DNA of 64,000 bases from Thermoanaerobaculia bacterium (GCA_963816185.1 CAWFJJ010000001.1:608001-672000), one strand, 5' to 3'. Positions 486 through 61,377 are shown, numbered from the stretch's first letter. Notes: generated by a model not told the origin, from the letters alone. Program-made: numbers and translations.

Positions 486-1733
486 TCACCGGGCGCTTTC
501 CTTCGCCGCGGCGTCTTTCGGTTCGGAGACGGGCGCGCCGTCCGCGGGCGGCGCCGAAAGACCGACGAGGACGGTCTCGCCCCCGGAGAGGCCGGACAGG
601 ATCTCGACCTTGCCGCCTTGCGAGGCGCCCGTCGTCACGACGCGCGTCCGCGCCTTGCCGGCGTCGTCCTTCAACGCGACGAGGCTGACGCCGCCGCTCG
701 CGAGAACCGCGCTCTCGGGAACGAGGACGGACGGCCGCGGCGCCGAGTCGAGCGTCGCGCGGCCCGTGAGGCCGGTCGCGACGGGTGCGCCCGCGAGCTC
801 GAGCGTCGCCGTGTAGGTATGGGTGGAGGGGTCGGCGCCGGGAGACATCTCGACGACGGTGCCCGTCAAATCGGCTGCCGCGCCGTCGATCCTCACGGCG
901 AGCTTCTTTCCGACCGAGAGGCCCGAGGAAGCGACCGTGCCGGCCGGGACTTGGACGACGAGCCGGCGGCCCGTCGCGGACTCGATCGTGACGAGCGGGC
1001 GGCCCGGGGCCGCGAGGTCGCCCGCCTCGACGAGGCGCGAGGCCACGCGGCCGGCGAAAGGCGCCACGACGCGGGATTCCCCCGCGACCGAGGACGCGGC
1101 ATCCACCGCGCCTTCACCCTGCTGGACGGCGCCCTTCGCCTGCTCGTACTGCATCCGGCTCATGTCGAGCTCGAGCGGCGAGGCGGAGCCCGAGGCCGCG
1201 AGGGCCTTGTAGCGCTCGTAGTTGCGCTGGGCGAGGGAGAGGGCCGCGCGGGCCTGAGCGAGCGCGCCTTTCGCCTGGGACTCCTGGCCCCGCGCCGTCT
1301 GCGGGTCGATCTCGACGAGGACGTCGCCCGCGGCGACGGATTGTCCGACGCGCGCGGGAACCGCGACCACGTTCGCCATCACGCGCGAAGAGACGGAGGC
1401 AGAGCGGTCGGCGGTGACGGTCCCGTAGAGAGTAAGTCGATCCGGCAACGAGGCCCGCTCGACGAGTGCCGTAGCCGCGGCGACCGGGGAGAGAGAAGAA
1501 GATTTCTTAGAGGGGTCATGGGAGGCGCCGCAGCCCGCAAGGACCGCCACGGCGACTCCCGCGGCGATCAGGCCCACTAACACCATCGAAGAAGATCCGA
1601 ACACGGCCTTTCGCGCGCTCGTCGCCGCCAAAAGCGGTGCGGGTTTCCCATTCTTCATCTTCAAAGAAGATCCGAATCCCCGGTTCTCTTCCTTCGCAGA
1701 AATTCCGAATCCGATCCTCTTCCCGATCTTCAC
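486..1733 (-). CDS. RND efflux periplasmic adaptor (membrane fusion protein)
   Basis: Lipobox-like VLAGC; GQSVAAGDVLVEID and VVAPFAGRV hybrid motifs; GTG overlaps the TolC stop (alternative start ATG 1586). Confidence 0.9.
   Translation of the reverse strand: MKIGKRIGFGISAKEENRGFGSSLKMKNGKPAPLLAATSARKAVFGSSSMVLVGLIAAGVAVAVLAGCGASHDPSKKSSSLSPVAAATALVERASLPDRLTLYGTVTADRSASVSSRVMANVVAVPARVGQSVAAGDVLVEIDPQTARGQESQAKGALAQARAALSLAQRNYERYKALAASGSASPLELDMSRMQYEQAKGAVQQGEGAVDAASSVAGESRVVAPFAGRVASRLVEAGDLAAPGRPLVTIESATGRRLVVQVPAGTVASSGLSVGKKLAVRIDGAAADLTGTVVEMSPGADPSTHTYTATLELAGAPVATGLTGRATLDSAPRPSVLVPESAVLASGGVSLVALKDDAGKARTRVVTTGASQGGKVEILSGLSGGETVLVGLSAPPADGAPVSEPKDAAAKESAR
1489..1675. repeat. Dispersed CTTHGAAGG/polypurine motif cluster A
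   Basis: + copy GAGAGAAGAAGATTTCTTAGAGGGG (1491-1515); - copies at about 1581-1598 and 1651-1675. Confidence 0.65.
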
Positions 1734-3103
1734 TCAATTCCTCCGTTCAAAATGCTCTCGGGGCGGCGCCCCGCTTTGACGGCGAGCCTCAGAGCCGCCG
1801 TGTGCGCGTCGGCTCGAGCGACGAGCTCGCGCGTCTCCGCCTCGCGGCGGGCCGTCGTGACGTCCAGGAGATCGAGCGTCTTCACGACGCCTGCACGGAA
1901 CCTCTCCTCGGTGATGCGCTCGGCCTCGCGTGCCGCTTCGAGCGCCTTTTTCGCGGTCTCGTGCCGGGCCTCCGCCGTCTTCGCTTCCTCGTAGGCCTGC
2001 CGGACCTCGAGGCGGACGCCGTCGGCGAACCGGTCGACGTCCTCGCGGCCCGCGCGGGCGTCTTCGCGCGCCGCGAGGGCCGCGGCGCGGTCGGCGCCGC
2101 CCGCAAAAACGTTCCAGGTCGCGACGGCCATGATCGATCCCGACGTGCCGGTCGAGCCGAACGGCTTGTCGCCGTAGAGCTCGCCCTTGGCGACGAACGC
2201 GAGCTTCGGCCAGAGGGGCGCCTTCTTCACCTTCTCCTCGATCTCGCCCGCGGCGAGGAGCTTCCGGGCCGAGCCGAGGTCGGAACGGTCGGCGGCGGTC
2301 GCGAGCCAGGTATCCAGGGGCGTCGCGACGGGGCGGGGATCAGGAAGCGGGGCGAGGATCCACGAAGAGCCGCCCGCGGCCCCCAGCCGGAACGCGAGAT
2401 TCGCGTTCGCGATCCTCACGCGTCCGTCGGCCTCGGTCGCGAGGTCGTCCATCCGGGCGAGCTCGACCTGGGCCCTCAGGAGCTCCGAGCGGACGAGCAT
2501 GCCCTGCGCCACGTAATCGCCCGCGAGCTTGACGTGCGCGGCCACCGTGTCGCGCGATTTGTGAAGCAAGGTCGCATACTCCTCGGCCTGTGCGACCATG
2601 ACGTACGCTTCGGCGGCCGAAAGGGCGGCGTTGTCGGACACCCACGTGGACGTTCCGGACGCCGCCTGAGCCGCGAGCTTCGCCTGGTCGATGCGGCCCG
2701 AGAGCTCGCCGCCCGTGAAGAGGGGGAGGGTGATCTCGGCCCGCGTGATCCCGGTGTTGAGCGGCGCGGCGTCGTTCGGGTCGCTCGCGACGAACTCCGG
2801 GAACGAGAACGTGCCCTGGTTGAGCTTCAGCGCGAATGCCTCGGCCGGGTTGTTCGTCCGCATCCAGAGCTCCGTCAGGTTGAGCGACGGCAGCCGGAAG
2901 GCTTTCGCCTGGGAGGCACGGGCTTCGGCGGCCCCTTGGCGGGCTTTTGCGGCCGTGACCTCGCGCGCGCTCTCACGCGCCTTCTGCATGGCCCCGGCGA
3001 GGGTCAGGGGGGACGGGGTCTCCGGAGGCTCGGCGGCCCGGGCCGGTCCGGCCAGCGCCGCCGCCAGTCCGAGGAGGACGAGGGGGTTGCTTTTTCCGTT
3101 CAC
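1730..3103 (-). CDS. TolC family outer membrane efflux protein
   Basis: Signal peptide; two OEP repeats (LTLAGAMQKA; ITLPLFTGG; ERFRAGVVKTLDLLD). Confidence 0.9.
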   Translation of the reverse strand: MNGKSNPLVLLGLAAALAGPARAAEPPETPSPLTLAGAMQKARESAREVTAAKARQGAAEARASQAKAFRLPSLNLTELWMRTNNPAEAFALKLNQGTFSFPEFVASDPNDAAPLNTGITRAEITLPLFTGGELSGRIDQAKLAAQAASGTSTWVSDNAALSAAEAYVMVAQAEEYATLLHKSRDTVAAHVKLAGDYVAQGMLVRSELLRAQVELARMDDLATEADGRVRIANANLAFRLGAAGGSSWILAPLPDPRPVATPLDTWLATAADRSDLGSARKLLAAGEIEEKVKKAPLWPKLAFVAKGELYGDKPFGSTGTSGSIMAVATWNVFAGGADRAAALAAREDARAGREDVDRFADGVRLEVRQAYEEAKTAEARHETAKKALEAAREAERITEERFRAGVVKTLDLLDVTTARREAETRELVARADAHTAALRLAVKAGRRPESILNGGIE

Positions 3104-3109
3104 GTGGAC

Positions 3110-3135
3110 TAATATATAGCTATATGGTTATGAAA
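3110..3135. promoter_or_regulatory. AT-rich palindromic operator between divergent tolC and DUF2892 genes (ArsR/SmtB-like)
   Basis: Perfect palindrome ATATAGCTATAT at 3114-3125 in a GC-rich background. Confidence 0.5.
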
Positions 3136-3176
3136 GTCAAGGCCCGAGGATCCGGGCCCGAAACAAGGAGAGACCG

Positions 3177-3793: not shown

Positions 3794-3802
3794 AGCGGGG
3801 CG

Positions 3803-5016: not shown

Positions 5017-5069
5017 GCCGGCACTTTACCGGGATTCCGGTCTCTTGGTCTGCGCGCTAAGCTGAGTTG

Positions 5070-5858: not shown

Positions 5859-5861
5859 CAC

Positions 5862-9551: not shown

Positions 9552-11860
9552 ATGGCGAACCGGCTCGCGCATGAATCGTCCCCCTATCTCCGCCAGCACG
9601 CGCACAACCCGGTGGACTGGTACCCGTGGGGCGACGAGGCGTTCGAGAAGGCGCGGCGCGGGGACCGGCCCGTCTTCCTCTCGATCGGCTATTCCTCCTG
9701 CCACTGGTGCCACGTCATGGAGCACGAGTCTTTCGAGGACGAGGAGATCGCGCGCTTCCTGAACGAGCACTGGGTCAGCATCAAGGTCGACCGCGAGGAG
9801 CGGCCCGACGTCGACGACGTCTACATGACCGCCGTCCAGCTCATGACGGGCCGCGGAGGCTGGCCGCTGTCCGCGTTCCTTCTTCCCGACAAGAAGCCGT
9901 TCTTTTGCGGAACGTATTTCCCGCCCGACGACCGGCGCGGCCATCCGGGTTTCCTCACGGTCCTGAAACGGCTGGAAGCCGCGTGGCGCGAGAGGCGCGC
10001 CGACCTCGAGAGCGGCGCCGCCGAGCTCGCCGCCGAACTCGCCGCGGCGTCCGGCGTCGCGGCCCGCGGCGCGCCGGAGCCCCTTTCGTCCGACCTGCTC
10101 GGCCTCCTGGGAGCCGCCCTGACCCGGAACTTCGACGCCGCCCACGGCGGCTTCGGCGACGCGCCGAAGTTTCCGCCGCACCTCGCGCTCGCGTGGCTTC
10201 TCCGCAGGGGGGGAGCGGAGACGCCACGGCGCTCGCGATGGCGCAGGCAACGCTCGACGCGATGGCGTCTGGCGGCATTTGCGACCAGCTCGGCGGCGGC
10301 TTTCACCGGTATTCCACGAACGCCGAGTGGCTCCTTCCGCACTTCGAGAAGATGCTCACCGACAACGCGCAGCTCCTCGGGGTCTACGCGCGCGCGTACG
10401 CGATCACGGGCGACGAGACGTACGCCCGGGTCGCGCGCAGCACCGGCGACTACCTCTTGCGCGAGATGCGGGGGCCGGAGGGCGGCTTCTACGCCGGGAC
10501 GGACGCGGATTCCGAGGGAGAAGAAGGGAAATTCTTTGTTTGGGACCCGAGCGAAATCCGTGAGGTCCTCGGGAAGGACGAGGGAGAATATTTCTGCGAA
10601 TGGTATGGGGTTCGGGAAGGCGGCAACTTCAGCGAGGAGGCTTCCGGCAGCCGCACCGGCGCCAGCATTCTTCACCTTTCTAAGAAGATCTCCTCTTCCC
10701 CGGGTGCGGAAGCTCGGCTCGCGCCGCTTCGGCAACGGCTTCTCGAGGCGCGCAGCAAACGGGTCCCTCCCGCCCTCGACGACAAGCGCGTCGCGGGGTG
10801 GAACGCGCTCGCGGTCTCGGGCTTCGCGGTCGCGTCAAGCGCGCTTTCCGAGCCGCGTTATCTCGAGGCCGCGCGCAAAGGCGCGCGCTTTCTGCTCGAT
10901 TTCTGCCGCGACTCGAGAGGACGGCTCCAGCGCACGTGGAAGGACGGCGTCGCGAAGATCCCCTCGTTCCTCGAGGACGAGGCCTTTCTCGCGCACGCGT
11001 TCCTCGATCTCGAGGAGGCGGACGGAGACGGCGCCGGCGGGTGGCGGGACGAGGCCGCCGCTGCAGTCGCCTCGATGCGCGCGCGATTTCGGAGGAAAGA
11101 CGGCCCCGGCTTCGCGTTTTCCGGAGACGGAAACGAAACGCTGCTCGTGAACGGGCGGGACCTCTTTGACAAGGCCACTCCCTCGGCCTCCGGCGCCGCC
11201 GCATGGGCTCTCGCGCGCTTCGCGCGGAAGACCGGCGACCGCGAGCTCGCCCGCGAAGCCCGCGACGCCGTCGAGGAGGTGTCGTGGCTCATGACGCGCT
11301 CGCCGCACGGCACGGAGTCGTGGTTCTTCGCCCTCGAGGAGCTCCTCGAGTTCGAGGACGAGTACGGATTGCTCCCTCTCGCGGACGCCGCCGAAGCGCG
11401 ACGACCTGCAGTAGGGCAGGGCACCGGAGATTTTTCTTCGAAGGTGAGTGGGATTTCGGCTGACGACTCGCCGGTGCGCGTCGAGGGAGTGGCCGTCGAG
11501 AGGAAGATCGTGCGCGGAGGCAAAGGCGCGCTCATTCTCAGAATCTCGGTCTCCGAGGGTTGGTACCTGCAAGGACCCGATGGTTTACGCGTCGAAACTC
11601 AGGGAGTCAGAGGGTCCGAATCCGAATTCACCTTCGAAGAGATTTCTCTACCCGCGCCTTCGCGCCTGCCCGGCTCGACGCGAGACGACGAAGCGGGCTG
11701 GTTCGGGACCCTCGAAGCAAATCTCTCTTTCTCCGTCTCCCGAAAGGCGGCGAAGGGAAAGAGAGAGGTGTCCGTCCGCGTGGCCTATCGGGCCTGCGGC
11801 GAAGGCGCGTGCCGGCCCGAGCAGGTCTTGTCGTTGACCGTGCCGATCGAGGTCGTCTGA
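9552..11860 (+). CDS. YyaL/SSP411 thioredoxin-domain protein with C-terminal DsbD-N-like domain; frameshift near G7 run at 10207
   Basis: [41 protein letters not shown] split over two frames; C-terminal [11 protein letters not shown]. Confidence 0.85.
10671..11735. repeat. Dispersed motif cluster B
   Basis: - copy GGAGATCTTCTTAGAAAGGTGAA (10671-10693); + copy GAGATTTTTCTTCGAAGGTGAG (11427-11448); - copies at 11627-11648 and about 11710-11733. Confidence 0.65.
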
Positions 11861-20475: not shown

Positions 20476-21107
20476 CTCTTCCCGCGATCCGCCGGATCTC
20501 GGGCACGGCGCTGCCGCTTTTGGGCGACGACATCGACACCGACCGCATCATCCCCGCGCGCTTCCTCGTCTCGATCACCTTCGAGGGGCTCGGGGCGCAC
20601 GCGTTCGAGGACGACCGGAAGGCCGCGGTGGCAAAGGGGGTCGCTCACCCGTTCGACGACCCGCGCTTTTCGGGCGCGAGGATTCTCCTCGTGAACCGCA
20701 ACTTCGGCTGCGGGTCTTCCCGTGAACACGCTCCGCAGGCGCTCGCACGCGCCGGCATCAAGACCCTCGTCGCCGAGTCCTTCTCGGAGATTTTCTTCGG
20801 GAACGCCGTCGCGATCGGCCTGCCGTGCGTGACGTTGCCGCGCGACGCGGTCCGGGAGCTGCAGAGTCTCGTGGAAGGCGCGCCGAAGTCCGAGATCTCG
20901 GTCGATCTCGAGGCGAGAGCCCTGATCGCCGAGGGAAAGACGTTTCCCGCCTCGCTTCCCGACAACGCGCGCGAGGCCTTCCTCTCGGGGAACTGGGACG
21001 GCACCTCGATGCTGCTCGAGCGGTTCGACGAGGTGAGAGCCGTGGCCGCCCGGCTGCCGTACGTCAGGGGGATTCGAGGCTCGAAGAGAACCGGCTTAGA
21101 AGGGTGA
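20472..21107 (+). CDS. leuD: 3-isopropylmalate dehydratase small subunit
   Basis: [28 protein letters not shown]. Confidence 0.95.
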
Positions 21108-25989: not shown

Positions 25990-27734
25990 GCGCCCAGTTC
26001 CAGCCCGCCGCACAGTTCCTGCCTCGCGAGAAGACGCGCGTGAGGGCCGCGAACGCGATGGCCGCCGAGCTCGTGGCGCAGGGCGTGACGCACATCTTCG
26101 GCCACCCGGGCGGCGCCTCGCTGCCGCTGTACGACGCGCTCCTTTCGGCTCCGATCACGCACCTCCTCATGCGGCACGAGCAGTGCGCGGCGCACGCCGC
26201 GCAGGGCTACGCGCGGGCCACGGGCCGGCCCGGCGTGTGCCTCGCGACGTCGGGCCCCGGCGCGACGAACCTCATCACGGGCCTCGCCGACGCGATGCTC
26301 GACTCCACGCCCGTCGTGGCGCTCACGGCACAGGTCGCGACTCCGCTCCTGGGCCGCGACGGCTTCCAGGAGGCCGACATCCTCGGCATGACGGCGCCGG
26401 TCACGAAGCACAACTGGCTCGTCCTCGACGCGCAGGAACTTCCCGGCACGGTGCGCGAGGCCTTCCGCCTCGCGTCCTCCGGGCGGCCCGGCCCCGTCCT
26501 CGTGGACGTGCCGCGCGACGTGCTGCAGACGGAGATCGACTGGGAGGTGGGAACCGCCGCCACGTCGCTCCCTCTCCGGCGCGCGGACCCCGTGGGCCTC
26601 CGCCGAGCGGCGTTCGCGATCTCGAACGCGAAGCGCCCGATCCTCTACGTGGGCGGCGGCGTCATCTCGTCCGGAGCGTCCGCGGAGGTGCGGCGCCTCG
26701 CGAGGAAGACGCGCATCCCCGTCACGACGACACTCATGGGAAAAGGGGCTTACCCCGAGACGGACGCACTGTCCGTCGGCATGCTCGGCATGCACGGCAC
26801 GGCCTACGCGAACTGGGCCATGAACGGCAGCGACCTCATCATCGCCGTGGGCGCGCGCTTCGACGACCGCATCACGGGAAAGCTCGCCACGTTCGCGCCG
26901 CACGCGAAGGTCGTCCACATCGACATCGACGAGGTCGAGATCGGCAAGAACCGCAAGGCCGATTACCCCCTCCACGGCGACGCCCGGGCGGTCCTCCAGC
27001 AGCTTCTGCCCCTCGTCGGCGCCCCCGACACGTCCGAGTGGTGGAAGGAGATCGAGGCGTGGAAGGCGAAAGCGCCCTTGAGGTACCGGGAGGAAGGCGA
27101 CGTCATCCTCCCGCAGTTCGCGATCGAAAGGCTCTGGCGGCTCACGCGTGACCACCGTCCGATCGTCACGACGGACGTCGGCCAGCACCAGATGTGGGCC
27201 GCGCAGTTCTGGAAGTGCGACGAGCCCGGCGTGTTCATCACGTCCGGCGGGCTCGGCACGATGGGCTTCGGCCTCCCGGCCGCGCTCGGCGCGCAGTGCG
27301 GGCGGCCGGACCGGCTCGTCATCAACCTCAACGGGGACGGCAGCTTCCAGCAGACCATGCAGACGCTCGCGACGGCGGTGGAAGCCCGCCTGCCGCTCAA
27401 GGTCGTCGTGATCGACAACCAGGGCCTCGGCATGGTGCGGCAGTGGCAGGACCTCTTCTACGACCGCCGCTTCTTCTCGGTGGAGCTGAAGAACCCCGAC
27501 TTCGCGAAGCTCGCCGAGGCGTTTGGCGCCGCGGGCTTCACCGCGCGGCGGCCGGACGAGCTGGATGCCGTGTACGAGAAGGCCCTTGCCGTGACGGGCG
27601 GTCCCGCGCTCGTCCACGTCGTCACCGAGCCCACCGAAAACTGCTTCCCCATGTGGCCCGCGGGCCAGTCCATCGACACGATGGTCGTCGAGGACCCGAG
27701 GCACGCGGCGAAAAGCGCGAAGAAGAAGAGCTGA
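25986..27734 (+). CDS. ilvB: Acetolactate synthase large subunit
   Basis: [44 protein letters not shown]. Confidence 0.95.
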
Positions 27735-28200
27735 AGAAGGACAAAGAAGAGAAGAAGAGCTTAGAAGGAAATATTCAGAGAGAACGAAGAGGAAGAGGAA
27801 CGGCAATGGAACAGATCTTCGACATCAGGATTCAGAACGTGCCCGGGATTTTGGCGCGCGTGGAGTCGATCTTCAGGCGGCAGCGCGCGCCCATTCGGGG
27901 GTTTTGCTTAGAAGGGGAAGAAATGACTGGCGCGGCGCATCTCACGATCACTGCCATGGCGAACGGCGACGTCGCCAATCTTCTGAGAAAGCAACTGATG
28001 CGGCTCATGGACGTGGAAGCGGTCGCCGATACCGGCGCCAGCGCGGCCCGCGCCTTCGCTCCGCCCGAATCCTCTTTCACCTTCAAAGAAAAAACTGCTT
28101 AACCCGAAAAAAGCCGCAAGCAGGAACCGATCGGACGTCCCAACAGCCCTATTCACCATCGAAGAAGAAACAGCGTTACCCAAGCCGAGAAGACAACACG
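27721..28200. repeat. Dispersed motif cluster D (purine-rich island around ilvN)
   Basis: + CTTAGAAGG at 27760 and 27907; - copies at about 28075-28095 and 28151-28170. Confidence 0.65.
27806..28102 (+). CDS. Short ACT-domain acetolactate synthase regulatory subunit (IlvN/IlvM-like)
   Basis: [16 protein letters not shown]...[14 protein letters not shown]; lies between ilvB and ilvC. Confidence 0.75.
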
Positions 28201-28221
28201 AAGCAGAACGGGAGCAGAACG

Positions 28222-32630: not shown

Positions 32631-35024
32631 TCAATGTTTCCGGACAGGAACGAACGGACCGGACGCTTCGATTCGAGGGTTAAGCGAGAGAGCGAAAACG
32701 GTCCCGAAATTGGCTGAACCTCCGTTCGCCGTCGTCCCGTAGAGATTTCCGAGGCCATCCAGGAGAAGCGAGCATACCGGGTTATGCCCATCGATAGGTC
32801 GCTCCTCAAATGCATGTAGGAGTTGAAGACCGGCGCCGTCTGTCTTGATGCTGAAGACTGTGCCGCCTCCGAGCGGGCCCCCGAATTGAGTTGTTCCGTA
32901 AAGGTTTCCGAACCCGTACACAACTGCGGACGGAGTGCCACCTTCCGTTGAAGGAATGCCATCTTCGATCGCTCCCGTGAAGGCGTGCAACACTTGGTAG
33001 CCGGTCCCGTCGGAGGAGATTCTGAATATGGTGCCAGAGTGGGAAGGACCGCCAATTTCGGTGGTTCCGAAAAAGGTTCCCGACCCGTCGGTAGTTAAGA
33101 AGCCCCCGGGGCTTATCCCATCGTCGCCGCCGACGAAGGTGTGCAGAAGGTGGAAGCCCGTGCCATCCGTTCTCAGCTTGAAGACCGTCCCCCAGTTCGT
33201 CGCTCCCCCTCCGATCGTCGTTCCGTAAAGGTTTCCGAGGCCGTCGAGGAGCAGGGAGGCGTAGGGTAATGCCCCGTTGCTCGTTGAGTCATAGCCGAAC
33301 GTATGGAGCAGCTGGAAGCCCGACCCGTCGACTCTCATTCTGAAAACGGTGCCCACTGTGGCTGCGCCTCCTTCGACCGTCGTTCCGTAGAGATTTCCCG
33401 AGCCGTCGAGGATCAGAGCAGCGCCAGGGACAAGGCCATCTGCGGCGCCGCCTTGGAAGGCATGCAGAATCTGAAAGCCTGACCCATCAGTCCTGAGCCG
33501 GAAAATGGTGCCGCCGTTCGCGGCCCCTCCCGTCCACGTCGTTCCGTAAAGGTTCCCCGACTGATCTGGAACCATTGCAGAACCCGGTGCGGCCCCATCG
33601 TTCGGGCCACCGACGAAGGTATGCAGCAGTTGGAAGCCCGTGCCGTCTGGCCTGATCCTGAAGACTGTACCTGTGTTAGAGGCGCCGCCGAGAGACGTCG
33701 TCCCGTAAAGGTAGCCCGGCGCGTCCGCGATCACCGATGCCACTGGCCCGCTGCCGTCGCCCGTGAAGCCCGCGAATGCGTGCAGAACCCGGAAGCCGCT
33801 TCCGTCGGTGTCGACCCCGAAGACGGTGCCCGAGTTTGAGAGAGCACCGTCGGCCATGGTCCCGTAAAGAGTTCCAGAACCAACCAGAATCAGGGAGCCC
33901 GACGGTGAGATTCCATCGGGCGGGTCTACAAATGTGCGCAGGACCTGGTACCCGGTCGCATCCGTCCTTACCTTGAAGAGGGTTGCGCCAAATGTTGTAC
34001 CGCTGCCCGACGTCATACCGTATAGAGTCCCGGATCGATCAAGTAACAACGAGCCGACGGGGTAAATCGCGTCGGTCGCACTTGCGCCGAACGAATGGAG
34101 GATCTGGAAGGCTGAGCCATCCTTGGCGATCCGGAATACGGTCCCGGCGTTAAACAAGCCCCCGAATCCAGTCGCTCCATAGAGGTTGCCCGCCCCGTCC
34201 GTCGTGACGGAGCCGGAAGGGCCCCCTCCATCGTTCGCGTCAACGGGAAAGGCTCGCAGGAGCTGAAATTCTGTTCCGTCCGTCTTGATCCTGAAGATGG
34301 TTCCGGCGCCGTCGTAGAACCCCCTGAGGTGGTAATCCACCCGCGGGTGGCCGCCGAAGGCCGTTGTGCCGGAGAGGGTGCCCGAGCCATCCAGAAGAAG
34401 GGAACCGGCAGGACCTCTCCCATCACCAACGCCGCCCGCGAACGTGTGAAGGAGCTGGAACCCCGTTCCGTCCGTTCTGAGCTTGAAGATGGTGCCGTAG
34501 TCCGAAGGACCGCCACCACTCGTCGTTCCGTAAAGGCTTCCCGTGCCGTCCGGAGTGAGCGAGACAAGAGGGAATCTTCCGTCACCGCCCGCAAATGAAT
34601 GAAGGACCTCGAAGCTGCTGCCATCCTCCTTGATCGTGAAAACGGTGCCCTCGCTCGCTGTTCCTCCGGTCCGAGTCGTGCCGTAGAGGTTTCCCGCATC
34701 GTCGAGGACGAGAGAAGCCTCAGGATCGAAACCGTCGTTCGCGCCGCCCGCGAATGCGTGAAGGCGCTGAAAGCCCGTACCATCCGTGTTGATCGTGAAG
34801 ACGGTGCCGCCGTCCGACGGGCCTCCGTGGGCCGTCGTTCCGTAAAGGTTGCCGCGGGTATCTGAAATCAACGGCGCACGGGGGATGCTCTCGGCGCCTT
34901 GAAAGGAGTGAAGAACGGAATAGCGGACGTGCGCTGGCGGTGAACCGCCGTCGGCGACCTGCGGGATGCCGGACCCTGTCAGGGTAAAGACGGAAGCGAG
35001 CAGCACCCTCGATCCGGAACGCAT
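32631..35024 (-). CDS. Exported tandem-repeat (GloVer/choice-of-anchor type) beta-propeller protein, 14 repeats
   Basis: 14 units of ..GNLYGTT..GG..GTVF....DG.GFQ.LH.F; N-terminal signal-like segment; lower GC. Confidence 0.85.
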   Translation of the reverse strand: MRSGSRVLLASVFTLTGSGIPQVADGGSPPAHVRYSVLHSFQGAESIPRAPLISDTRGNLYGTTAHGGPSDGGTVFTINTDGTGFQRLHAFAGGANDGFDPEASLVLDDAGNLYGTTRTGGTASEGTVFTIKEDGSSFEVLHSFAGGDGRFPLVSLTPDGTGSLYGTTSGGGPSDYGTIFKLRTDGTGFQLLHTFAGGVGDGRGPAGSLLLDGSGTLSGTTAFGGHPRVDYHLRGFYDGAGTIFRIKTDGTEFQLLRAFPVDANDGGGPSGSVTTDGAGNLYGATGFGGLFNAGTVFRIAKDGSAFQILHSFGASATDAIYPVGSLLLDRSGTLYGMTSGSGTTFGATLFKVRTDATGYQVLRTFVDPPDGISPSGSLILVGSGTLYGTMADGALSNSGTVFGVDTDGSGFRVLHAFAGFTGDGSGPVASVIADAPGYLYGTTSLGGASNTGTVFRIRPDGTGFQLLHTFVGGPNDGAAPGSAMVPDQSGNLYGTTWTGGAANGGTIFRLRTDGSGFQILHAFQGGAADGLVPGAALILDGSGNLYGTTVEGGAATVGTVFRMRVDGSGFQLLHTFGYDSTSNGALPYASLLLDGLGNLYGTTIGGGATNWGTVFKLRTDGTGFHLLHTFVGGDDGISPGGFLTTDGSGTFFGTTEIGGPSHSGTIFRISSDGTGYQVLHAFTGAIEDGIPSTEGGTPSAVVYGFGNLYGTTQFGGPLGGGTVFSIKTDGAGLQLLHAFEERPIDGHNPVCSLLLDGLGNLYGTTANGGSANFGTVFALSLNPRIEASGPFVPVRKH

Positions 35025-35191
35025 TTCTCTGCCTCTCACCGTAGCTCTGCTTGACGCGTCATCGACGTCCAAACGGAAGTGTAGGCGTCAGGCGAGCACT
35101 AACCGCGAAAGATGATGTGTCTGCTCCATCCGTGATGGAGCGCTGCGACTGACGACAAGGCTGAGCGTTACGGCTCCGGTTCCATCCAGAC

Positions 35192-38945: not shown

Positions 38946-39037
38946 CGTTTCCCCCCTGTCCGCACGGCGCGGCGCCGGAATGTTTCGCGGAACATACACC
39001 AGAGCCCGCTTAGAATGTCGACAAGAGGGGAGCAGGC

Positions 39038-41480: not shown

Positions 41481-41993
41481 CTACGCGAGGATCGCCCCTT
41501 CGTGCGCGAGCAGCCAACGCTTCCGCGAAATCCCTCCGCCGTAGCCCGCGAGCTTGCCGTCTGACGCGATGACGCGATGGCACGGCACGACGACCGAGAC
41601 GGGATTTCGCGCGTTCGCACCCGCGACCGCGCGGACGGCGGAAGGCTTGCCGACGGCGCGCGCGAGCTGCGCGTACGACCAGGTCGTGCCAGGGGGAATG
41701 CGACGGAGGGCTTTCCAAACCTCTTCCTGAAAAGCAGTGCCATCCGTGTCGACGAGGACGTCGGCGAGTGCCTCGAGGTCGCCAGCGAAATATCGCCGCA
41801 AGGCGTCGGCTGCACCTCCGCCTTTCGGATTTTCTTCGAAGGAGATTTTCCCGAACCTCCGTATGAGGTCCGCTTCCATCCCTTTCCAGCGATCTTTGTA
41901 GACGAGTCCGACGAGGGCGGTTCCGCGGCTCACCAGAACGACGGTGCCCGCGGGCGTGTCGATTTCCGTGATGGAAAGCCGGGTGGGGTTCAT
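41481..41993 (-). CDS. ogt: Methylated-DNA--protein-cysteine methyltransferase
   Basis: GTAFQEEVW, RAVAGANARNP, PCHRV active site. Confidence 0.9.
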   Translation of the reverse strand: MNPTRLSITEIDTPAGTVVLVSRGTALVGLVYKDRWKGMEADLIRRFGKISFEENPKGGGAADALRRYFAGDLEALADVLVDTDGTAFQEEVWKALRRIPPGTTWSYAQLARAVGKPSAVRAVAGANARNPVSVVVPCHRVIASDGKLAGYGGGISRKRWLLAHEGAILA

Positions 41994-45736: not shown

Positions 45737-46432
45737 TCAGAGGTCGAGCTTCGCGCGTGCGGCGGCGAGGACGGCCGCCGCCGCCGCGGGCATGCCGAGC
45801 GCACGAGGATGGACGACGAGGTCGTAAGCCGCCGGATCTTCGATCTCCCTCTGGAAGGCCTGCCAGATGAAATCCCGCTGTGCCGTGTCGCTCGCCGCGA
45901 TGCGGCGGCACGCTTCGTCGAGCGTGAGGCCCAGGTCGCGCGCCAGCGCCTCGGCGCGCTCGGCGGCCGGGGCGACGGTACGGACGCAAAGCCCGTATGC
46001 GGGATCCAGCATGAAATTCGCGCCGCGCCCGACGAGCACCGCGTGACCCTCGCGCCCCAGACGTTGGACGACGTGCGTCAGATCGACGAGGTAGCGAGCC
46101 TGGCCGGGGTCGGCCGGAAGGATGAGCGGCGCGATGTACTCGCCGAACGCGCGCACGCCCTTCTCGTCGAATCGCTCGAGGGTCCACTCGTCACGCCGCA
46201 TATCGGACGCCACCGCGTGGAGGATCTCCCGATCGTAGACGCTCCAGCCGAGCGCGGACCCGACCCGGACCGCAAGCTCGTTGCCCGCCGACCCGAGCTC
46301 ACGCGAGAACGCGATCCAGGGTCCTTCGGCCTGCGCGGGCCCGGCAGACGGGCTTTCCGTCGCGCGCCGGCGCATTTCCGTGAAGCGACCCTGGCGATCT
46401 GCAAGTTCCACGCCGGGAAGCGTCGAAGTCAT
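45737..46432 (-). CDS. Cytidylate kinase-like family protein
   Basis: IAFSRELGSAG, VYDREIL, VLVGRGANF, PAAYDLV. Confidence 0.85.
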   Translation of the reverse strand: MTSTLPGVELADRQGRFTEMRRRATESPSAGPAQAEGPWIAFSRELGSAGNELAVRVGSALGWSVYDREILHAVASDMRRDEWTLERFDEKGVRAFGEYIAPLILPADPGQARYLVDLTHVVQRLGREGHAVLVGRGANFMLDPAYGLCVRTVAPAAERAEALARDLGLTLDEACRRIAASDTAQRDFIWQAFQREIEDPAAYDLVVHPRALGMPAAAAAVLAAARAKLDL

Positions 46433-46528
46433 GACGGCCTCCCCCTGCCGGCCTGCCCTGGCCGACTCGAGCCTGCGGATAATGTAGTGCCGCCGCGCCG
46501 TTCGTGCATGCCCGGCCGCGCCGCGACT

Positions 46529-47684
46529 TCACGAAATCAACATCGCGTCGCCGTAGCTGAAGAAGCGATATCCCTTCGCGACCGCCTCCCGGTAGGCGGC
46601 CAGAACTCGCTCGCGTCCCGCGAACGCGGACACGAGCATGAGCAGCGTCGAGCGGGGCAGGTGGAAGTTCGTCAGGAGCGCGTCCACGATGTGAAACGTC
46701 GCGCCCGGGCACGAGGAAGAGGTCCGTCTCGAACGCGCCTGCGGCGACCGTGCCGCCGTGCGTGCGAGCCGACGCCTCGAGCGTGCGCACGGACGTCGTG
46801 CCGACCGCGACGACGCGACGCCCGTCGCGTTTCGCATGGTTCACGCGTTCGGCGGTTTCCCCGGGGATTTCCGTCCGCTCGAGATCCATCCGGTGCTCTT
46901 CGACGAGATCGACTTTTACCGGCTTGAACGTGCCGAGGCCCACGTGCAGGGTCACGCGTGCGAGGTGCACTCCCTGCGCTTCGATCTTCGCGAGCAGGTC
47001 GGGAGTGAAGTGCAGCCCGGCCGTCGGCGCCGCGATCGCACCGGGGCGATCGGCGAACACGGTCTGGTAGTCGATCGCATCCTGGGCGTCCGCGACGCCG
47101 AGCGGGCGCCGGATGTAGGGTGGCAGGGGAGCGGACCCGAGGGAGGGGAGATCGTCGAGGAGAAAAGACGTTTTGCTCCCGTGCTTCGTGAAACGGAGAA
47201 CGTAGAGGCCGGCTTCGGAGCGAGTCGTTTCGCCGGTTTTCTTAGAAGGTGAATGGGGCATGGGCTGGGCCCGAGCCGCGCTCGCGAGCGCCACGGCCTC
47301 CCACCCCCCTTCGAAGAAAAAGCGCCGTCCCGGTTTGACGCGCCGTCCCGGTTTTGCGAGACACCGCCAGAGCTCCTCTTCTTTCTTTTCCCTTTTCGAA
47401 GCAAAATCCGAAATCCCCGGTTCCTCCGACATCTTCGAAACCAGCAGGAATTCCGTCCTTCGCCCCTTCTCGTCCGTTCCGAAAATCCGCGCCGGGATGA
47501 CTTTCGTGTCGTTCAGGACAAGGACGTCACCCGCGTGGAGAAGCGACGGCAGATCGGCGACCACGCGATGGGCGAACGCGCCCGTCCGGCGGTCGAGCGT
47601 CATGAGGCGTGCGGTGCCGCGCGGGGCGGGCCGCTGGGCGATGGATTCGGACGGCAGCACGAAATCGAAATCCGCGACGTCCAT
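46529..47684 (-). CDS. queA: S-adenosylmethionine:tRNA ribosyltransferase-isomerase; frameshift near 46705
   Basis: [60 protein letters not shown]. Confidence 0.92.
47232..47412. repeat. Dispersed motif cluster G inside queA
   Basis: + TTTTCTTAGAAGGTGAA (47237-47253); - copies at 47308-47322 and about 47375-47410. Confidence 0.7.
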
Positions 47685-47722
47685 CCGCCGCATTTTGCAC
47701 GGCCGCTGTGCGAGACTGACGC

Positions 47723-49338
47723 ATGCGGTCGAGGGCCGGAGTCGTCGTGGGGCTCTATGCCCTTCTGGCGCTTCTCACCGTCCCGGTTTTTCCGCACTTT
47801 CTCTCGCCGAACGAGTTCACGCGCTGGGCGCTCGCCGCGTCGTTCGTCGAGCACGGCACGCCGGAGATCTCCTCCGTTCTGCCGCTCCTCGGGCCGGCGT
47901 TCGAGGATGTCTCGGAGAAAGGCGGGCGCGTCTACTCGAACAAGGCACCCGGCGCGACGCTCGTCGCCCTGCCGGGGTACCTTCTCGCGCGCCCGTTCTC
48001 GGGAGCGCCCTCGCCTTCTTCGATGCGACCGGTTCTGTGGGCGATGCGGCTCTTCGGTGCGACGGCGCCCGCAGTGCTGCTCGCGCTCGTCCTGTTCCAC
48101 GCGGCCGTGAGGTCCGGGGCTTCTCCCTCGCGCGCCGCGAGTGCGGCATTCGCTCTCCTTTTCGCGACGCCGCTCTTCACATACGGCCTGCTTCTCTTTT
48201 CGCACGCCCTCGCCGCGGCGTGCCTCTTCGGAGCGTGGGTCGCGCTCTTCCATCCGGGCGATCCTTCCCGCGTGTTTCGCCGCGATGTGCTTGCGGGCGC
48301 GCTCCTCGGTCTCGCGGTCCTCTCGGAGTACCCGGCGGCCGTGCCGGCGGCCGTGCTCGCCCTTTGCGCGGTCATCCCCGCGCCCCGGCGCGCCCTCGCC
48401 CTCGCCGCGGGGGGTGCTCCGTTCGCGGCCCTTCTCGGCGCGTACGATCTGGCCTGCTTCGGGGGAGTCTTCGAGCTTTCTTCCGCCCACGAGCTCTCGT
48501 CGAGCTTCCGGTCGCTCGCCTCGGCGGGTCTCTTCGGCATCGCCCTGCCGTCTCCGGAAATCCTCCTTCGCCTGCTCGCGGACCCGTCGAAAGGCCTCCT
48601 GGTCTTCTCGCCGTTTCTCCTCCTGTGGCCCGGAGCGCTTCTCTCGTCCCGCGCCGCGTTGCCTTTCGGGGGCCGCGTCGCGCTCGTGCTCGCTCCTCTC
48701 TCGCTTCTCCTCCTCTATGCGGGCTACCCGAACTGGCACGGCGGGTTCAGCGTCGGGCCGCGGTATCTCGTCGCGGCTCTGCCGTTCCTCGTCTTCCCGT
48801 TCGCATTCGGGAAGGGGGGATTCCTCGAGAGCGCGCTCGTCGGTGCTTCGACGCTGGCCGTTTGCGCGACGACGCTCGCGTTCCCGTTCGTCCCTCCCGG
48901 GTTCGCGTTGCCGTGGGGCTCATTCGCGGCGTACTTCTTCGAGAGGGGCTCGACGCTGCCGAACGTGTTGCAGATCGTTGCGCCCTCGGCGGCGCGCTTC
49001 GTCCTGCCGGCAATCGTGGCGGTCGCGGCGTACTTATCCTTGGAAGGGAAGAGAGAAGAGGATCCGAAAGCCGAAGGGGAAGGGTGGGAATCGCTTTTTT
49101 CCTTGGAGCGGCGGCCTGCGCATTCCTGGGAATTCTCCTTTCTAAGCAAGTTATTCTTTCTTCTCCTTCCCTTCTTCTCCAGCGTGCGTACGTCGCCGAT
49201 GTTTACTTCGAGCAGCGGGGCACGCTCGATGAGGAGATCGCCCGGACCGGATCCCGGCAGCCGCGTCTCCTCGCCCGGCGCGAGCGGGAACTTTCGCTTC
49301 CCCCGCCGCCCTGGCCTTTTCCGCCGGCATCACGCTGA
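47723..49338 (+). CDS. Polytopic membrane protein, GT-C glycosyltransferase-like; frameshift near 49050-49090
   Basis: YSNKAPG, many TM segments, [18 protein letters not shown]. Confidence 0.7.
49030..49180. repeat. Dispersed motif cluster H
   Basis: + CCTTGGAAGGGAAGAGAGAAG (from 49038); - CTTGCTTAGAAAGGAG (49135-49150) with pyrimidine tract on +. Confidence 0.6.
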
Positions 49339-57502: not shown

Positions 57503-57637
57503 GAGAACGAGGAGAGAGGAAGAGATTTCTTAGAAGGTGAAGATCGGAAGCCGGCTCGCGCGCGCGGCGCTGCCTCGCGCGAGAACCGCCCCCTCAAGCC
57601 CTTTTCTAAGAGAATCTTCTTCTTCTTTCTTCTCTCG
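57500..57637. repeat. Dispersed motif cluster I (inverted pair)
   Basis: + AGAGATTTCTTAGAAGGTGAAGA (57521-57543); - GAAGAAGATTCTCTTAGAAAAGG (about 57600-57622). Confidence 0.75.
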
Positions 57638-58238
57638 ATCTCGGCCCGTGCCGGCGCAGAGGATGCGACCCCGAAGATCGACGCTCGAGCGCGTCGTCGA
57701 CGGCCGCGGGAACCGGTTTTGCGACATCGCGAAGGCGTCCGTGAAGAGCGAGAACGAGCGTCGGAGCGCGTGGGTCGTGCGCGGCTTGCTCCGGAGCGAT
57801 CTCGTCCTGCGGCGCGAAGTCCGCAGGGATGCGAACAGCGGGGAGTCGACGGTCGACGAGATCCGTCTCGGCGACGGGGCGCCGCTGCGCTTCGAGGGCG
57901 GCGCCCCGGGAAGCCGCGTCACGGCGGCGTCGCCTGTCTCGACCTTTCGTTACTTCGACGTCGACGTCACCCGGCCGACCGTGCGCTGCAACCTCTCGCG
58001 CCTCGTCGAGGAGACCGACCACGAGCTCCTGGGCGCCGCCGCGGACTACTGGGCGATGAAACAGGGAATGGGGGAGAAGGTCTCGATCGAGGAGCTGCCC
58101 GTGCTCATGCTTCTCGCGATCGAGAAGCGCCCGCCGCTCCCGTCGCCGCCGATTCGAAAGAAGAAACCTCTTTCCGAGGACGCGCCGGAGGCGGTCGATC
58201 TGAAGTCCGCCGCTCTCGCGGCGCTCGGCGAGGAGTAG
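57537..58238 (+). CDS. Hypothetical protein (5' end uncertain, possible frameshift near 57680)
   Basis: Body ORF plausible; a signal-like SKRIFFFFLLSISARAGAED lies in another frame. Confidence 0.55.
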   Translation: MKIGSRLARAALPRARTAPSSPFLRESSSSFFSRSRPVPAQRMRPRRSTLERVVDGRGNRFCDIAKASVKSENERRSAWVVRGLLRSDLVLRREVRRDANSGESTVDEIRLGDGAPLRFEGGAPGSRVTAASPVSTFRYFDVDVTRPTVRCNLSRLVEETDHELLGAAADYWAMKQGMGEKVSIEELPVLMLLAIEKRPPLPSPPIRKKKPLSEDAPEAVDLKSAALAALGEE

Positions 58239-58242
58239 GGCC

Positions 58243-59724: not shown

Positions 59725-59731
59725 AGCGGCC

Positions 59732-60574
59732 TCAGTTCACGAGGACGTCGGTCGTCAGAGTCTGCGTGGACGTCGCGACGGAAATGCGTGCCGTCCCGCG
59801 CGCCACGCCCGTGACGGCGCCGTTCGAGACCGTAGCCGTCTTCGGGTCGGAAGACGTCCAGGCCAGCGCGGCATCCTCGATGAGGACGCCCGTGGGGTCC
59901 CGGATCGTCGCCATGATCCTCTGTGTCTCGCCCACCTTCAGGATCAAGGTGACGGGGGTGAGCTCGAACGTGGCGATCACGCGGTGAAGGACCTTTACGT
60001 CGCACGCGGAGCTCACGTCGCTGCCGAGGCTGGCGATGATCGTCGTCTGGCCCTCGGCACCGGACGTCACGCCCCCCTCCCCGTCGACGGTCGCGACCTT
60101 CGGGTCTCCCGAGATCCACTTCGGCTTCAGGGGAGACAGGTTTCCCTTTCCGTCCTTGATCTCGGCGAGAAGCGACGTCTTCGTCCCCGCTGGCCCGACG
60201 AGCGTGATGCGGCTCGGGGTGACCGTGAGGGACGAGACGTCCATGACCTCCACGACGGCGCTCGACGTGAGGTTCTTGAAGGTCGCCGTCATGATCGCGC
60301 GCCCGGGCGCGAGAGATCGAACGACTCCGTTCGCGTCGATCGTCGCGATCTTGGGTTTGTCGGTGACCCAGACGGCGGTCAGGCCCGGCATCGGATTGCC
60401 CTTCTTGTCGGTGATCTCGTACTTGAGAGACTGATTGCGGCCCGTTCCGTAGAGGGTCACTTTGGCCGGCGTGATCCGGAGGTCGGACGGCCTGGGACGG
60501 CAGGCCTCGGCGGCCAGCATGATCACAGAAAGAACGAGGGCCTTTCCGGCAAGGCCCGCGAAACATCTTTTCAT
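59732..60574 (-). CDS. Ig-like (Big_2) repeat lipoprotein
   Basis: Signal peptide with AEAC; three W.(S/T).DP.(I/V)AT(I/V)...G.V repeats. Confidence 0.85.
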   Translation of the reverse strand: MKRCFAGLAGKALVLSVIMLAAEACRPRPSDLRITPAKVTLYGTGRNQSLKYEITDKKGNPMPGLTAVWVTDKPKIATIDANGVVRSLAPGRAIMTATFKNLTSSAVVEVMDVSSLTVTPSRITLVGPAGTKTSLLAEIKDGKGNLSPLKPKWISGDPKVATVDGEGGVTSGAEGQTTIIASLGSDVSSACDVKVLHRVIATFELTPVTLILKVGETQRIMATIRDPTGVLIEDAALAWTSSDPKTATVSNGAVTGVARGTARISVATSTQTLTTDVLVN

Positions 60575-60584
60575 CGCGGCGATT

Positions 60585-61364
60585 CTAGCGCGCGGGTGTC
60601 GTCAATCCTGCGGGCACGGCCTGGTTGTCCATGCGCTGCGCGATGAGGTCGGTGCGGCGCTCCCAGGCCGCCGGATGCGCGCGGTACCATGCCGGACCCG
60701 GGATCAGGGCGGCGAGATGCGCCGCGTCCCGGGTCGAGAGGCGGCTCGCGTTCACGCCGAAGAGCGCGCGTGACGCCGCCTCGCAGCCATAGGTCGTCTC
60801 GCCGAACTCGATCGCCGAAAGATAGATCTCGAGGATCCGCGCCTTCGGCACGAGGAGGTCGAGGGTGGCGGCGAGAACCGCCTCGCGCCCCTTCCGCCAC
60901 CAGGTGCGGTCGCCCGTGAGCCACAGGTTCTTCACGAGCTGCTGCGTGATCGTCGACGCGCCGTGAAGGCGTTTTCTGCGGCTCCTCGCGTGCGCCTCGT
61001 TCCAGCGGTGGGCCGAAGAGACCGCATCCCAATCGATCCCGTGGTGCTCGAAGAAACGGGAATCTTCCGCGGTGAGGACCGCCTGCACGAGGGCGGGCGA
61101 GACCTGAGAGAGGCGAACGGGGCGCCGGTCGATCGTGTCGCTCTTGCCAAGGGCGCGCAGGTGCGCCCTTCGGGCCTCGATGAACGCGGTGGTCTTCGGG
61201 TCGCGCCAGCGGAGGAGAATGATCTGCGGAAGAGGGATGAAGACGAGGAAAAGGAAGATGAAGAGAAGAAGAAGAGAGAGATTTCTTAGAAGGTGAAGAG
61301 AAGAAACCCCGCGGCCCCCGTGGCGCGCTTCGGCGGATTGCGACGCGCCGGCCCCGTCTTTCAT
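60585..61364 (-). CDS. mtgA: Monofunctional peptidoglycan transglycosylase
   Basis: AEDSRFFEHHG, GASTITQQLVKNL, RKGRE, KARILEIYL. Confidence 0.88.
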   Translation of the reverse strand: MKDGAGASQSAEARHGGRGVSSLHLLRNLSLLLLFIFLFLVFIPLPQIILLRWRDPKTTAFIEARRAHLRALGKSDTIDRRPVRLSQVSPALVQAVLTAEDSRFFEHHGIDWDAVSSAHRWNEAHARSRRKRLHGASTITQQLVKNLWLTGDRTWWRKGREAVLAATLDLLVPKARILEIYLSAIEFGETTYGCEAASRALFGVNASRLSTRDAAHLAALIPGPAWYRAHPAAWERRTDLIAQRMDNQAVPAGLTTPAR

Positions 61365-61377
61365 TCGAAGAAAAAGC
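61255..61377. repeat. Dispersed motif cluster J at mtgA 5' end
   Basis: + AGAGATTTCTTAGAAGGTGAAGA (61277-61299), identical to 57521-57543; - copy at about 61361-61376. Confidence 0.75.

Follow-up and report, generated by a model that had tools for sequence, protein, structure and literature searches.

It is rare for a short DNA word to override codon choice across a whole genome. Such behavior is well understood for uptake sequences, and the nearest described layout is that of the repetitive extragenic palindromic (REP) sequences and their inverted doublets, the REPINs. Here we describe an element that joins uptake-sequence-like accumulation with the doublet geometry of REPINs, and that does so without the REPIN hairpin or a transposase. 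The element is a DNA word of ~25 nt, hereafter called an arm, which usually stands head to head with a second copy. It was found in a 64-kb stretch (G000:C1:608001-672000, hereafter the window) of a Thermoanaerobaculia bacterium, whose genome (G000) is a 5.09-Mb, 30-contig assembly with 67% GC. The host lineage is an uncultured, abundant group of soil acidobacteria without genetics.

Rickettsia palindromic elements (RPEs) are conserved palindromic units of ~100-150 bp that are inserted whole and in frame inside housekeeping genes. For REPINs, the sections cited here give 71 bp as the commonest spacing in Pseudomonas fluorescens and describe a spacer that is less conserved than the ends (PMC3116915). 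In Neisseria, RS elements are flanked by dRS3 repeats, which the cited portion of the source describes as 20-bp units that have their own 6-bp terminal inverted repeat, form long arrays, and are found between genes only; the units are also proposed there to be sites for a specific recombinase (PMC1797815). A full-text literature search (supplementary files excluded) on the motif strings and on repeat elements in Acidobacteria returned nothing relevant.

Results

A long word surrounds the CTTAGA sites

The gene content of the window, as recognized by Pfam, is ordinary for a chromosome and includes an efflux pump, an ilv/leu operon, glnA, pyr genes, and glycogen synthase. The initial annotation of this stretch had listed 11 CTTAGA hexamers, most of them in low-GC, purine-skewed islands with a shared core. 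All 11 are present at those places, although the site given as 10680 starts at 10679. By itself the hexamer is weakly enriched, its 11 occurrences comparing with a shuffle mean of 5.4 (a count of 11 is attained in 2 of 100 shuffles). When the sites are aligned, a much longer word is common to 10 of the 11, and the same number carry the flanks that had been described for the islands. The remaining hexamer, at 39009, had been taken for a -10 box; a simple sigma-70 scan gives no promoter there.

With its main variants, the core of the word reads TTTCTT[A/C/T]GAA[G/A/T]G and lies between purine-rich flanks. The 12-mer TTTCTTAGAAGG, allowed at most two mismatches, matches the window 17 times against 1.49 expected (the largest shuffle gives 6, and 0 of 100 reach 17), and the degenerate 11-mer TTCTTNGAADG, allowed at most one, matches 26 times against 6.4 expected (0 of 100 shuffles reach 26). 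Across the genome, CTTAGAA occurs 449 times and TTCTTAGAAGG 201 times. At exactly zero, one, and two mismatches, the 12-mer is counted 149, 265, and 429 times, as compared with 2, 23, and 240 for its reversed, non-complemented control.

A logo of the 449 genomic sites displays purine-rich positions from -22 to -5, then (A/T)TTT, CTTAGAA, GG(T/G)GAA, and RRGG. A single arm spans ~25 nt, with a purine-rich flank followed by GATTTCTT[A/C/T]GAAGG and then TGAAGAGGG; the pyrimidine block within this purine arm is 6 nt long, judged by eye. The word "polypurine," originally applied to the whole element, suits its outer flank, which expands and contracts by slippage, and does not suit the remainder.

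About 10 clusters had been proposed for the window. Arms were recovered at 1.5, 10.6-10.7, 11.4-11.6, 21.1, 27.8-28.2, 41.8, 47.2-47.3, 49.0-49.1, 57.5-57.6, and 61.3-61.4 kb, and a site listed as weak at 37.3 kb was not recovered at the 12-mer and 11-mer thresholds used. Genome-wide, loci are separated by a median of ~8 kb and a mean of ~16 kb. Ten 20-kb intervals with GC below 0.63 hold no arms, and elsewhere there are 1.3-1.9 arms per 20 kb.

Arms face each other in pairs

An arm was called "+" if its purine-rich strand is the + strand. Neighbors in the order + then - lie within 150 bp of each other in 151 of 270 pairs. For the back-to-back order, - then +, this is the case in 31 of 267, and 26 of those 31 are self-overlaps of the near-palindromic core; same-strand neighbors are this close in 58 of 282. 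A facing partner (at most three mismatches, within 250 bp) was found for 320 of the 414 arms that have at most one mismatch, or 77%. The window holds eight facing pairs and three single arms. Over 238 pairs, the spacing has its mode at 74-77 nt (33 pairs) and a range of ~30-240 nt. Geometry as strict as this would imply that one complex reads the two arms.

The interiors of the pairs are ordinary GC-rich DNA, and in an all-against-all BLAST comparison they are unique, except for overlapping alternative pairs and a few paralogous genes. Interiors sampled from the pairs with a spacing of 60-100 (60 of 114) fold with a mean z of -0.49, compared with -0.25 for random genomic DNA, and five whole elements from the window give z values between -1.34 and +0.20, such that a hairpin excess is absent. 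The arms of a pair are independent at variable positions, sharing the same central base at a frequency of 0.51 where 0.54 is expected (p=0.49). Because there is neither excess folding nor covariation, and because the interiors are unique, the pair is neither a selected hairpin nor a recent inverted duplication.

A terminator function was rejected as well, given that hairpins are not in excess and that the outer flank of paired arms faces the 5′ end of a gene 115 times and the 3′ end 83 times. Arms have no orientation preference relative to neighboring genes, and the sequence of a pair is identical in sense whichever strand is transcribed. Tiny open reading frames (ORFs) between the arms were tried as an explanation and set aside, since spacing modulo 3 is weakly biased (99/75/64). 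A periodicity of ~9 nt in the spacing beats all 500 jittered nulls at one period, among the many periods that were tried.

The word fits coding sequence in every frame

Gene models came from a crude codon-usage caller, whose 4079 calls cover 83% of the genome. By these calls, 280 of the 449 CTTAGAA sites are intergenic (62%, as against 17% of the genome) and 169 (~38%) are in genes. For the wider class TTCTT[N]GAA[AGT]G, 276 of 574 sites are inside gene calls, in all six frames and on both strands. There is one frame per strand in which a central A would yield TAG or TAA. This frame holds 98 of the 276 sites, close to one third, as would be the case for a word indifferent to frame, and all 98 have C or T at the center. 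A central base other than A is seen in 38% of sites in the other frames and in 35% of sites between genes.

When synonymous codons were shuffled within genes (20 replicates), the class fell to ~20 from the 275 observed, a 14-fold difference, and TTCTTAGAAGG fell to ~1 from 72. The word is thus in excess of a codon-preserving null, the check that the initial annotation had named as able to refute it, subject to the roughness of the gene models. Its copies occupy more than one frame and both strands, and their settings are unrelated to each other: queA, ilvN, and ogt, the 5′ end of mtgA, that of a gene for a membrane-fusion protein, and intergenic spacers. The proposal that protein conservation does not explain the motif is borne out.

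In some genes, such as mtgA and a gene at 57.6 kb, the pyrimidine strand of an arm encodes a membrane anchor or signal peptide. A general signal-peptide cassette was nevertheless rejected, a hydrophobic stretch being encoded at 16% of 94 read-through sites and at 16% of controls. Co-option of this kind is real but not general.

The word belongs to one genus and part of its sister genus

Each of the 18 genomes sampled from the genus has the 12-mer (45-210 copies per genome); the 12 genomes taken from seven other genera of the order have none. A draw made across the family included 26 genomes of the genus, all of them with the 11-mer (37-267 copies each). All eight genomes of the sister genus g17 have at least one copy, and five of them have at least seven (7-31 copies). 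Single copies at the level of chance were seen in 2 of 17 genomes of g9, 2 of 2 of g10, and 1 of 2 of g16, and none in the five remaining genera of the draw, each represented by one genome. The copies in the sister genus have the same facing layout, and the pair of one genome brackets a native stretch of alaS. In a public species-representative collection, a 17-mer version of the word is concentrated in metagenome-assembled genomes (MAGs) titled Thermoanaerobaculia or Acidobacteriota bacterium; unrelated, mostly AT-rich genomes give isolated single matches.

An artifact of assembly or polishing is excluded, since all 26 of the other genomes of the genus carry the word and it recurs in many public MAGs that were assembled independently. 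Together with the excess over the synonymous-codon null and the use of rare codons within genes, the restriction to this genus and part of its sister genus upholds the earlier suggestion of a lineage-specific signal that acts at the DNA level, beyond protein conservation.

Facing pairs were also sought elsewhere with exact 8-mers in samples of 400-420 kb, an insensitive scan that missed the family in 160 kb of the relative G007 holding 33 matches. Matches to the core class in these samples number 2 in G045 (sister genus), 0 in G046 (same family), and 2 each in G027 and G022 (other families). Different facing repeats were observed in the last two genomes. They comprise GGTGGTA heptamer arrays together with AGGTGTCAGG and ATCGGGTGAT words in G027:C1:200001-600000, and AGTTGCGAG(TT) in G022:C1:1-420000.

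Arm cores are kept better than their surroundings

Between G000 and its nearest relative, G007, 104 kb could be aligned at an identity of 0.873, and 28 of the 45 arms in this region are fully alignable. In these 28 the core is 0.860 identical, compared with 0.720 for the outer flank, 0.727 for the inner flank, and 0.759 for the interior. Cores are kept better than their surroundings, yet turnover is substantial. The central base toggles between A and C in orthologous arms, purine flanks differ in length through slippage, and extra arms have come from tandem duplication of ~33 bp.

Several loci could be followed through more species. For queA, 20 species were aligned, one more having been dropped for a wrongly extracted frame. 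The arm encoding FFFEGGW is present in 20 of 20. In outgroup QueA its counterparts are native residues (I.F.EG-type), and the rare TTA codon is used in this arm by three species. The arm encoding HSPSKK (CAT TCA CCT TCT AAG AAA) lies within a genus-specific insert of ~25 aa, which is present in 15 of the 20 species, missing with different edges in the other 5, and missing from all five outgroup genomes (G019 and G024 are unpublished; the other three agree). Pairwise identity at third positions among the 20 species is 0.83 for the HSPSKK arm, 0.51 for the interior, and 0.63 for the rest of the gene. In ilvN, residues 12-73 match the ACT_5 profile at positions 2-62 (62 residues on 61 positions), which indicates that the two arms in this domain came without insertion. 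An ilvN arm has a central A in G000 and a central C in G007.

At the 61.3 kb locus, the sequences of 20 species with both anchors were read by eye. The first arm is recognizable in 18 of 20, and the interior with the second arm in 10 of 20; in G007, the interior and the second arm were lost to a deletion of ~105 bp whose near edge adjoins the first arm. At the 57.5 kb locus, 11 of 13 loci have the second arm, which is read in two alternative frames of the gene downstream; in most species this arm and its pyrimidine tract form the 5′ end of that gene. The first arm and the interior are found in G000 and G007 alone (2 of 13), an apparent gain. At the leuD end, G007 has the facing arm that a small deletion has broken in G000.

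Transposases and their ends do not carry the word

Searched in six frames, the assembled sequence (94.9% complete) gives 0 matches to the Y1 (REP-associated tyrosine, RAYT) transposase profile PF01797, and the control gave matches in 6 of 14 genomes. TnpB was likewise not found in this assembly. The word is absent from the flanks of a six-copy IS110-family element and of the single DDE_3 and DDE_Tnp_1 genes, and genes inside long pairs gave no transposase association either, so each candidate for such an association proved negative. A miniature inverted-repeat transposable element (MITE) inserted at a palindromic target was also rejected, the hypothetical empty site TTCTTAAGAA occurring 0 times. 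No target duplication is visible at indel edges, where the flanks compared between species are highly diverged.

The IS110-family insertion sequence (IS; Transposase_20) is ~1.48 kb long. Its six copies are 99-100% identical and are located at G000:C2:6876, C24:337421, C24:734726, C25:393885, C25:609259, and C25:611241, two of them in tandem on C25; the family has three more distant members. This element looks recently active and unrelated to the word.

Likeness to the 16S rRNA 3′ end

The complementarity of the arm to the 3′ end of 16S rRNA suggested an extended Shine-Dalgarno site, but ribosome-binding site or promoter was rejected as a general role. A plausible gene start follows 44 of 449 arms, as compared with 467 of 3000 random positions, and the logo has no start codon. 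The arm thus does not stand at a fixed short distance before starts on the sense strand, as a Shine-Dalgarno sequence would. By eye, the pyrimidine-strand arm ATTCACCTTCTAAGAAATC agrees with the 16S 3′ end and spacer start GATCACCTCCTTTCTAAGGGATC (G000:C1:445540-445575; L001 ~3040-3070) at ~15 of 19 positions once the four-letter anti-Shine-Dalgarno core is left out of the comparison. This likeness may be a coincidence or a clue to the origin of the word.

Arms and genes in the window

The arms of the window are collected in Table 1.

Table 1. Positions and contexts of arms in the 64-kb window. Signs give the strand that is purine-rich.
Feature	Coordinates	Context
Facing pair	1503-1514 (+) with 1583-1593 (-); span 1503..1594	Conserved in G007
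Further degenerate arms	1658-1668 (-) and 1691-1702 (-)	
Facing pair	10592-10602 (+, 1 mismatch) with 10676-10687 (-)	In long ORF with weak DsbD_N match only
Arm faced by two arms	11433-11444 (+) faced by 11533-11543 (-) and 11631-11642 (-)	
Single arm	21092-21103 (+)	CTTAGAAGG at 21095-21103; overlaps last codons and stop of leuD
Single arm	27757-27768 (+)	ilvB-ilvN spacer
Facing arms in ilvN	27904-27915 (+), 27979-27990 (-)	ACT domain; peptides FCLEGEE and LLRKQ
Arm	28080-28091 (-)	C-terminal tail of ilvN
Arm	28156-28166 (-)	ilvN-ilvC spacer
Single arm	41831-41842 (+)	Inside ogt (minus-strand gene); peptide ISFEEN
Facing pair in queA	47238-47249 (+) with 47308-47319 (-)	Minus-strand gene; HSPSKK and FFFEGGW, both in frame
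Facing pair	49037-49047 (+, 1 mismatch) with 49138-49149 (-)	Upstream of pyrR
Facing pair	57526-57537 (+) with ~57602-57613 (-)	CTTAGA at 57605-57610; between two genes without Pfam match
Facing pair	61282-61293 (+) with 61362-61373 (-)	Long polypurine flank on first arm; second arm in spacer

The first pair covers, on the minus strand, the start and a lipoprotein-type signal peptide (recognized by eye) of a gene for an HlyD-family membrane-fusion protein, whose HlyD domains lie in 489-1586 on the same strand; the signal peptide of this efflux adaptor is encoded by the interior of the pair. The arm at 10676 is conserved in G007. The polypurine flank of the arm at 27757 is 29 nt longer than its counterpart in G007, and the extra stretch is bounded by a direct repeat. 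In ogt, the arm is the C-centered variant, and a central A would create a stop codon in the frame that it occupies. A third, degenerate arm of queA is found near 47385-47400, in a second variable insert (by eye). On the minus strand (60588-61364), the arm at 61282, together with its flank, encodes LLRNLSLLLLFIFLFLVF, the membrane anchor at the N terminus of MtgA, a transglycosylase.

Some further observations concern the same genes. Contigs from soil RNA-library runs, derived from relatives at 90-95%, bridge ilvB-ilvN-ilvC and have 25-32 different letters in place of the arm-bearing segments 27734-27803 and 28090-28207. The queA gene (46299-47693, minus strand) is apparently frameshifted near its 3′ end (~46530-46710): the long ORF departs from QueA beyond "...FLVPG," and another frame (46532-46705) matches the Queuosine_synth profile over its final 58 residues, which could reflect a real frameshift or an assembly error. 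At 57660-57700, judged by eye, G000 has one extra base relative to at least 10 orthologues, just before a conserved coding stretch ...PKITLERIVDGRG. The extra base puts the signal-peptide-like N terminus of the 57.6 kb gene out of frame with the mature part, unless the start codon is the ATG at 57681 or the GTG that lies within the first arm. Finally, an 813-aa ORF without a Pfam match (32634-35072, minus strand) has lower GC (0.57-0.66) and no arms. The region measures ~3.1 kb in G000 and ~1.6 kb between the same flanks in G007 and is probably a strain-specific island.

Discussion

We favor the explanation that the arms are paired recognition sites for a candidate sequence-specific factor, read where they stand and kept by selection or drive, as opposed to parts of a unit that is copied. 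From the sequence comparisons at hand, we put this a little short of an even chance. Each arm would be a recognition site for a factor that acts on two facing arms, most commonly about seven helical turns (74-77 nt) apart. Arms would arise and persist in place mainly by point substitution, by local slippage or duplication, and by small insertions, and would be lost by deletion. They would be retained by a genome-wide bias, whether selection for some function in the host or molecular drive of the type that builds uptake sequences, and owing to such a bias the word would pile up between genes and fit coding sequence in every frame. The independence of the arms, the unique interiors, the overwriting of native codons, and the fit to every frame together suggest that the word is recognized in place and accumulates locally. 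Within this explanation, our rough apportionment gives about one half to a protein of the nucleoid, of DNA topology, or of recombination, about one third to a tag for the uptake or recombination of self-DNA, and about one sixth to something else.

A number of observations weigh against paired recognition sites. Loci are clustered and not evenly placed (gap coefficient of variation 1.29), and copy number varies ~7-fold within the genus. In the region compared with G007, 17 of 45 arms are not alignable, and the identity of the alignable cores (0.860) no more than equals the genome average (0.873), which indicates moderate constraint. The FFFEG arm of queA, at a third-position identity of 0.65, is kept no better than the gene as a whole at 0.63. 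Some arms arrived with inserted DNA, namely the ~25 aa of queA and the upstream arm and interior at 57.6 kb, which a purely substitutional model does not predict. The crude gene calls make the in-gene fraction and the frame counts approximate. We infer both that the reader would be a protein, and not an RNA or a DNA structure, and what its reading would do.

Given these arms with inserted DNA and the 7-fold variation in copy number, a mobile-repeat origin is a serious rival, even if we consider it doubtful. The initial annotation, whose interpretation is partly supported, lacked this rival as well as the facing pairs; the particular functions that it named (a nucleoid, SMC, or occlusion site, an uptake sequence, or non-B DNA) are all candidates still. 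The element would be REPIN- or MITE-like non-autonomous mobile DNA in which the arms are terminal inverted repeats for a transposase acting in trans and the doublet is what replicates. Single arms would be decayed remnants, and copies inside genes would be tolerated in-frame insertions, as with RPEs. The doublet geometry is strikingly REPIN-like, the commonest spacing of 71 bp reported for P. fluorescens in the cited part of that study (PMC3116915) comparing with 74-77 nt here. The intergenic bias (62% against 17% of the genome), the copy-number variation, the ~25-aa in-frame insert of queA, and the presence or absence of arms at orthologous loci (the second arm at 61.3 kb in 10 of 20, the queA arm in 15 of 20, and the 57.5 kb arm in 2 of 13) are all in keeping with mobility, and deletion of a partner does yield single arms. 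However, the unique interiors mean that no element was copied recently as a unit, and so a shared interior, which would mark a MITE, is not seen, nor is a parental IS that ends in these repeats. The word has inverted doublets at a favored distance, as REPINs do, but the REPINs of the cited sections are hairpins with compensatory changes (PMC3116915), whereas the arms here do not covary and the doublets fold no better than shuffles. No Y1/RAYT transposase and no TnpB were found in the 94.9%-complete genome, and the IS110-family, DDE_3, and DDE_Tnp_1 loci do not have the word at their ends. Also at odds with mobility are the long pairs that enclose housekeeping genes, the arms that overwrite native codons without insertion, and the low-GC intervals that have no arms; the 0 occurrences of the putative empty site and the diverged indel edges, where no target duplication is seen, may point the same way.

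A strict tag for DNA uptake or self-recognition, with which the word would mark the genus's own DNA and accumulate by drive, as do the uptake signal sequences (USS) of Pasteurellaceae and the DNA uptake sequences (DUS) of Neisseriaceae, strikes us as improbable. As in the uptake sequences of the cited sections (PMC2817400), there is a lineage-specific, oriented, over-represented word in hundreds of copies, under-represented in coding sequence and yet found in all its frames. It uses poorly conserved protein positions, such as loops of queA, and is lacking in atypical DNA; its non-coding copies are often inverted pairs. Those sections nevertheless describe uptake sequences that pair as close dyads and form terminator hairpins (PMC2817400), whereas the arms here stand 50-100 nt apart without a hairpin. 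No uptake model requires the pairing of 77% of arms. With about one locus per 8-16 kb, the word is also several-fold less dense than USS and DUS. A ComEC-family gene is present in G000, but ComEC occurs in 10 of 14 control genomes and so carries little information; to our knowledge, neither competence nor a receptor is known in this uncultured lineage. More improbable still, in our estimation, is an element that works in RNA, with the purine arm in an mRNA serving as a Shine-Dalgarno-like sequence or as a site for the ribosome, Hfq, or an RNase, and the pyrimidine arm as its anti-sequence. By eye, AGAAGGTGA is one base off the complement of the 16S 3′ end, which here is GGATCACCTCCTTTCTAAGG, and CTTAGAA is complementary to the TTCTAAG just after GGATCACCTCCTTTCTAAGG. 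A start codon lies 12-23 nt after several arms of the window, the purine flanks resemble A-R-N-like tracts, and a pair is the same on either transcript. Against a role in RNA stand the low frequency of gene starts after arms and the logo without a start codon, the indifference to the orientation of neighboring genes, and the in-gene copies on either strand. The arms do not covary, so pairing of arm with arm is not selected, and Rfam gave no match in the 64-kb window.

Returning to paired recognition sites, these could be the cis sites of an undescribed genome-wide system of Thermoanaerobaculia, with a machine that reads two head-to-head 25-nt words and marks or organizes its own DNA. We think this bolder version unlikely. 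If it were true, the system could be a tag for uptake or recombination in a group that does not belong to the Proteobacteria, or else a dedicated chromosome-structuring protein, and the word would exert enough force to alter the choice of codons in essential genes and even the amino acids that they encode. If a protein reader exists, the word itself would be a direct handle for finding it. The element also has consequences for annotators of these MAGs: arms mislead gene callers by supplying stop and start codons, strings that resemble a Shine-Dalgarno sequence, and open frames made of pyrimidines or purines, and they have added lineage-specific peptide inserts to housekeeping proteins.

Among the described systems, RPEs are similar in that in-frame short repeats add peptides in tolerant loops, as in queA; they differ in that here the ~25-nt arms alone are conserved and some have arisen without insertion. 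The resemblance to REPINs and bacterial interspersed mosaic elements (BIMEs), as the sections cited present them, lies in the hundreds of short units, the inverted doublets with a preferred spacing, the mostly intergenic placement, the lineage-specific vertical inheritance, and the singlets that are remnants of doublets (PMC3116915). According to the same sections, however, REP units are palindromic and REPINs fold as long hairpins, REPs are extragenic and go with a RAYT gene, and REPIN spacers can be aligned within a family (PMC3116915). The words described here have no excess folding or covariation, ~38% of them are in gene calls, no RAYT gene was found, and the interiors are unique. The Neisseria intergenic mosaic elements (NIMEs), formed by dRS3 and RS, may be considered a looser analogue than REPINs. 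In the cited portion of their description, short conserved units bracket a variable 50-150 bp and are genus-specific and syntenic in relatives, but RS spacers are repeat families (PMC1797815); the arms here are asymmetric, mostly form simple pairs, occur also in genes, and have unique spacers. With USS and DUS, as far as the cited sections describe them, the word shares its orientation, its restriction to a lineage, its excess over chance on both strands, its accumulation by substitution, and its frequent inverted pairing between genes, and also the coding copies in all frames at poorly conserved positions and the lack of copies where DNA has no homologues or is atypical (PMC2817400). It differs from them in that no terminator hairpin is formed and that, as a rule (77% of arms), the word stands in facing pairs around ~50 nt of unique sequence.

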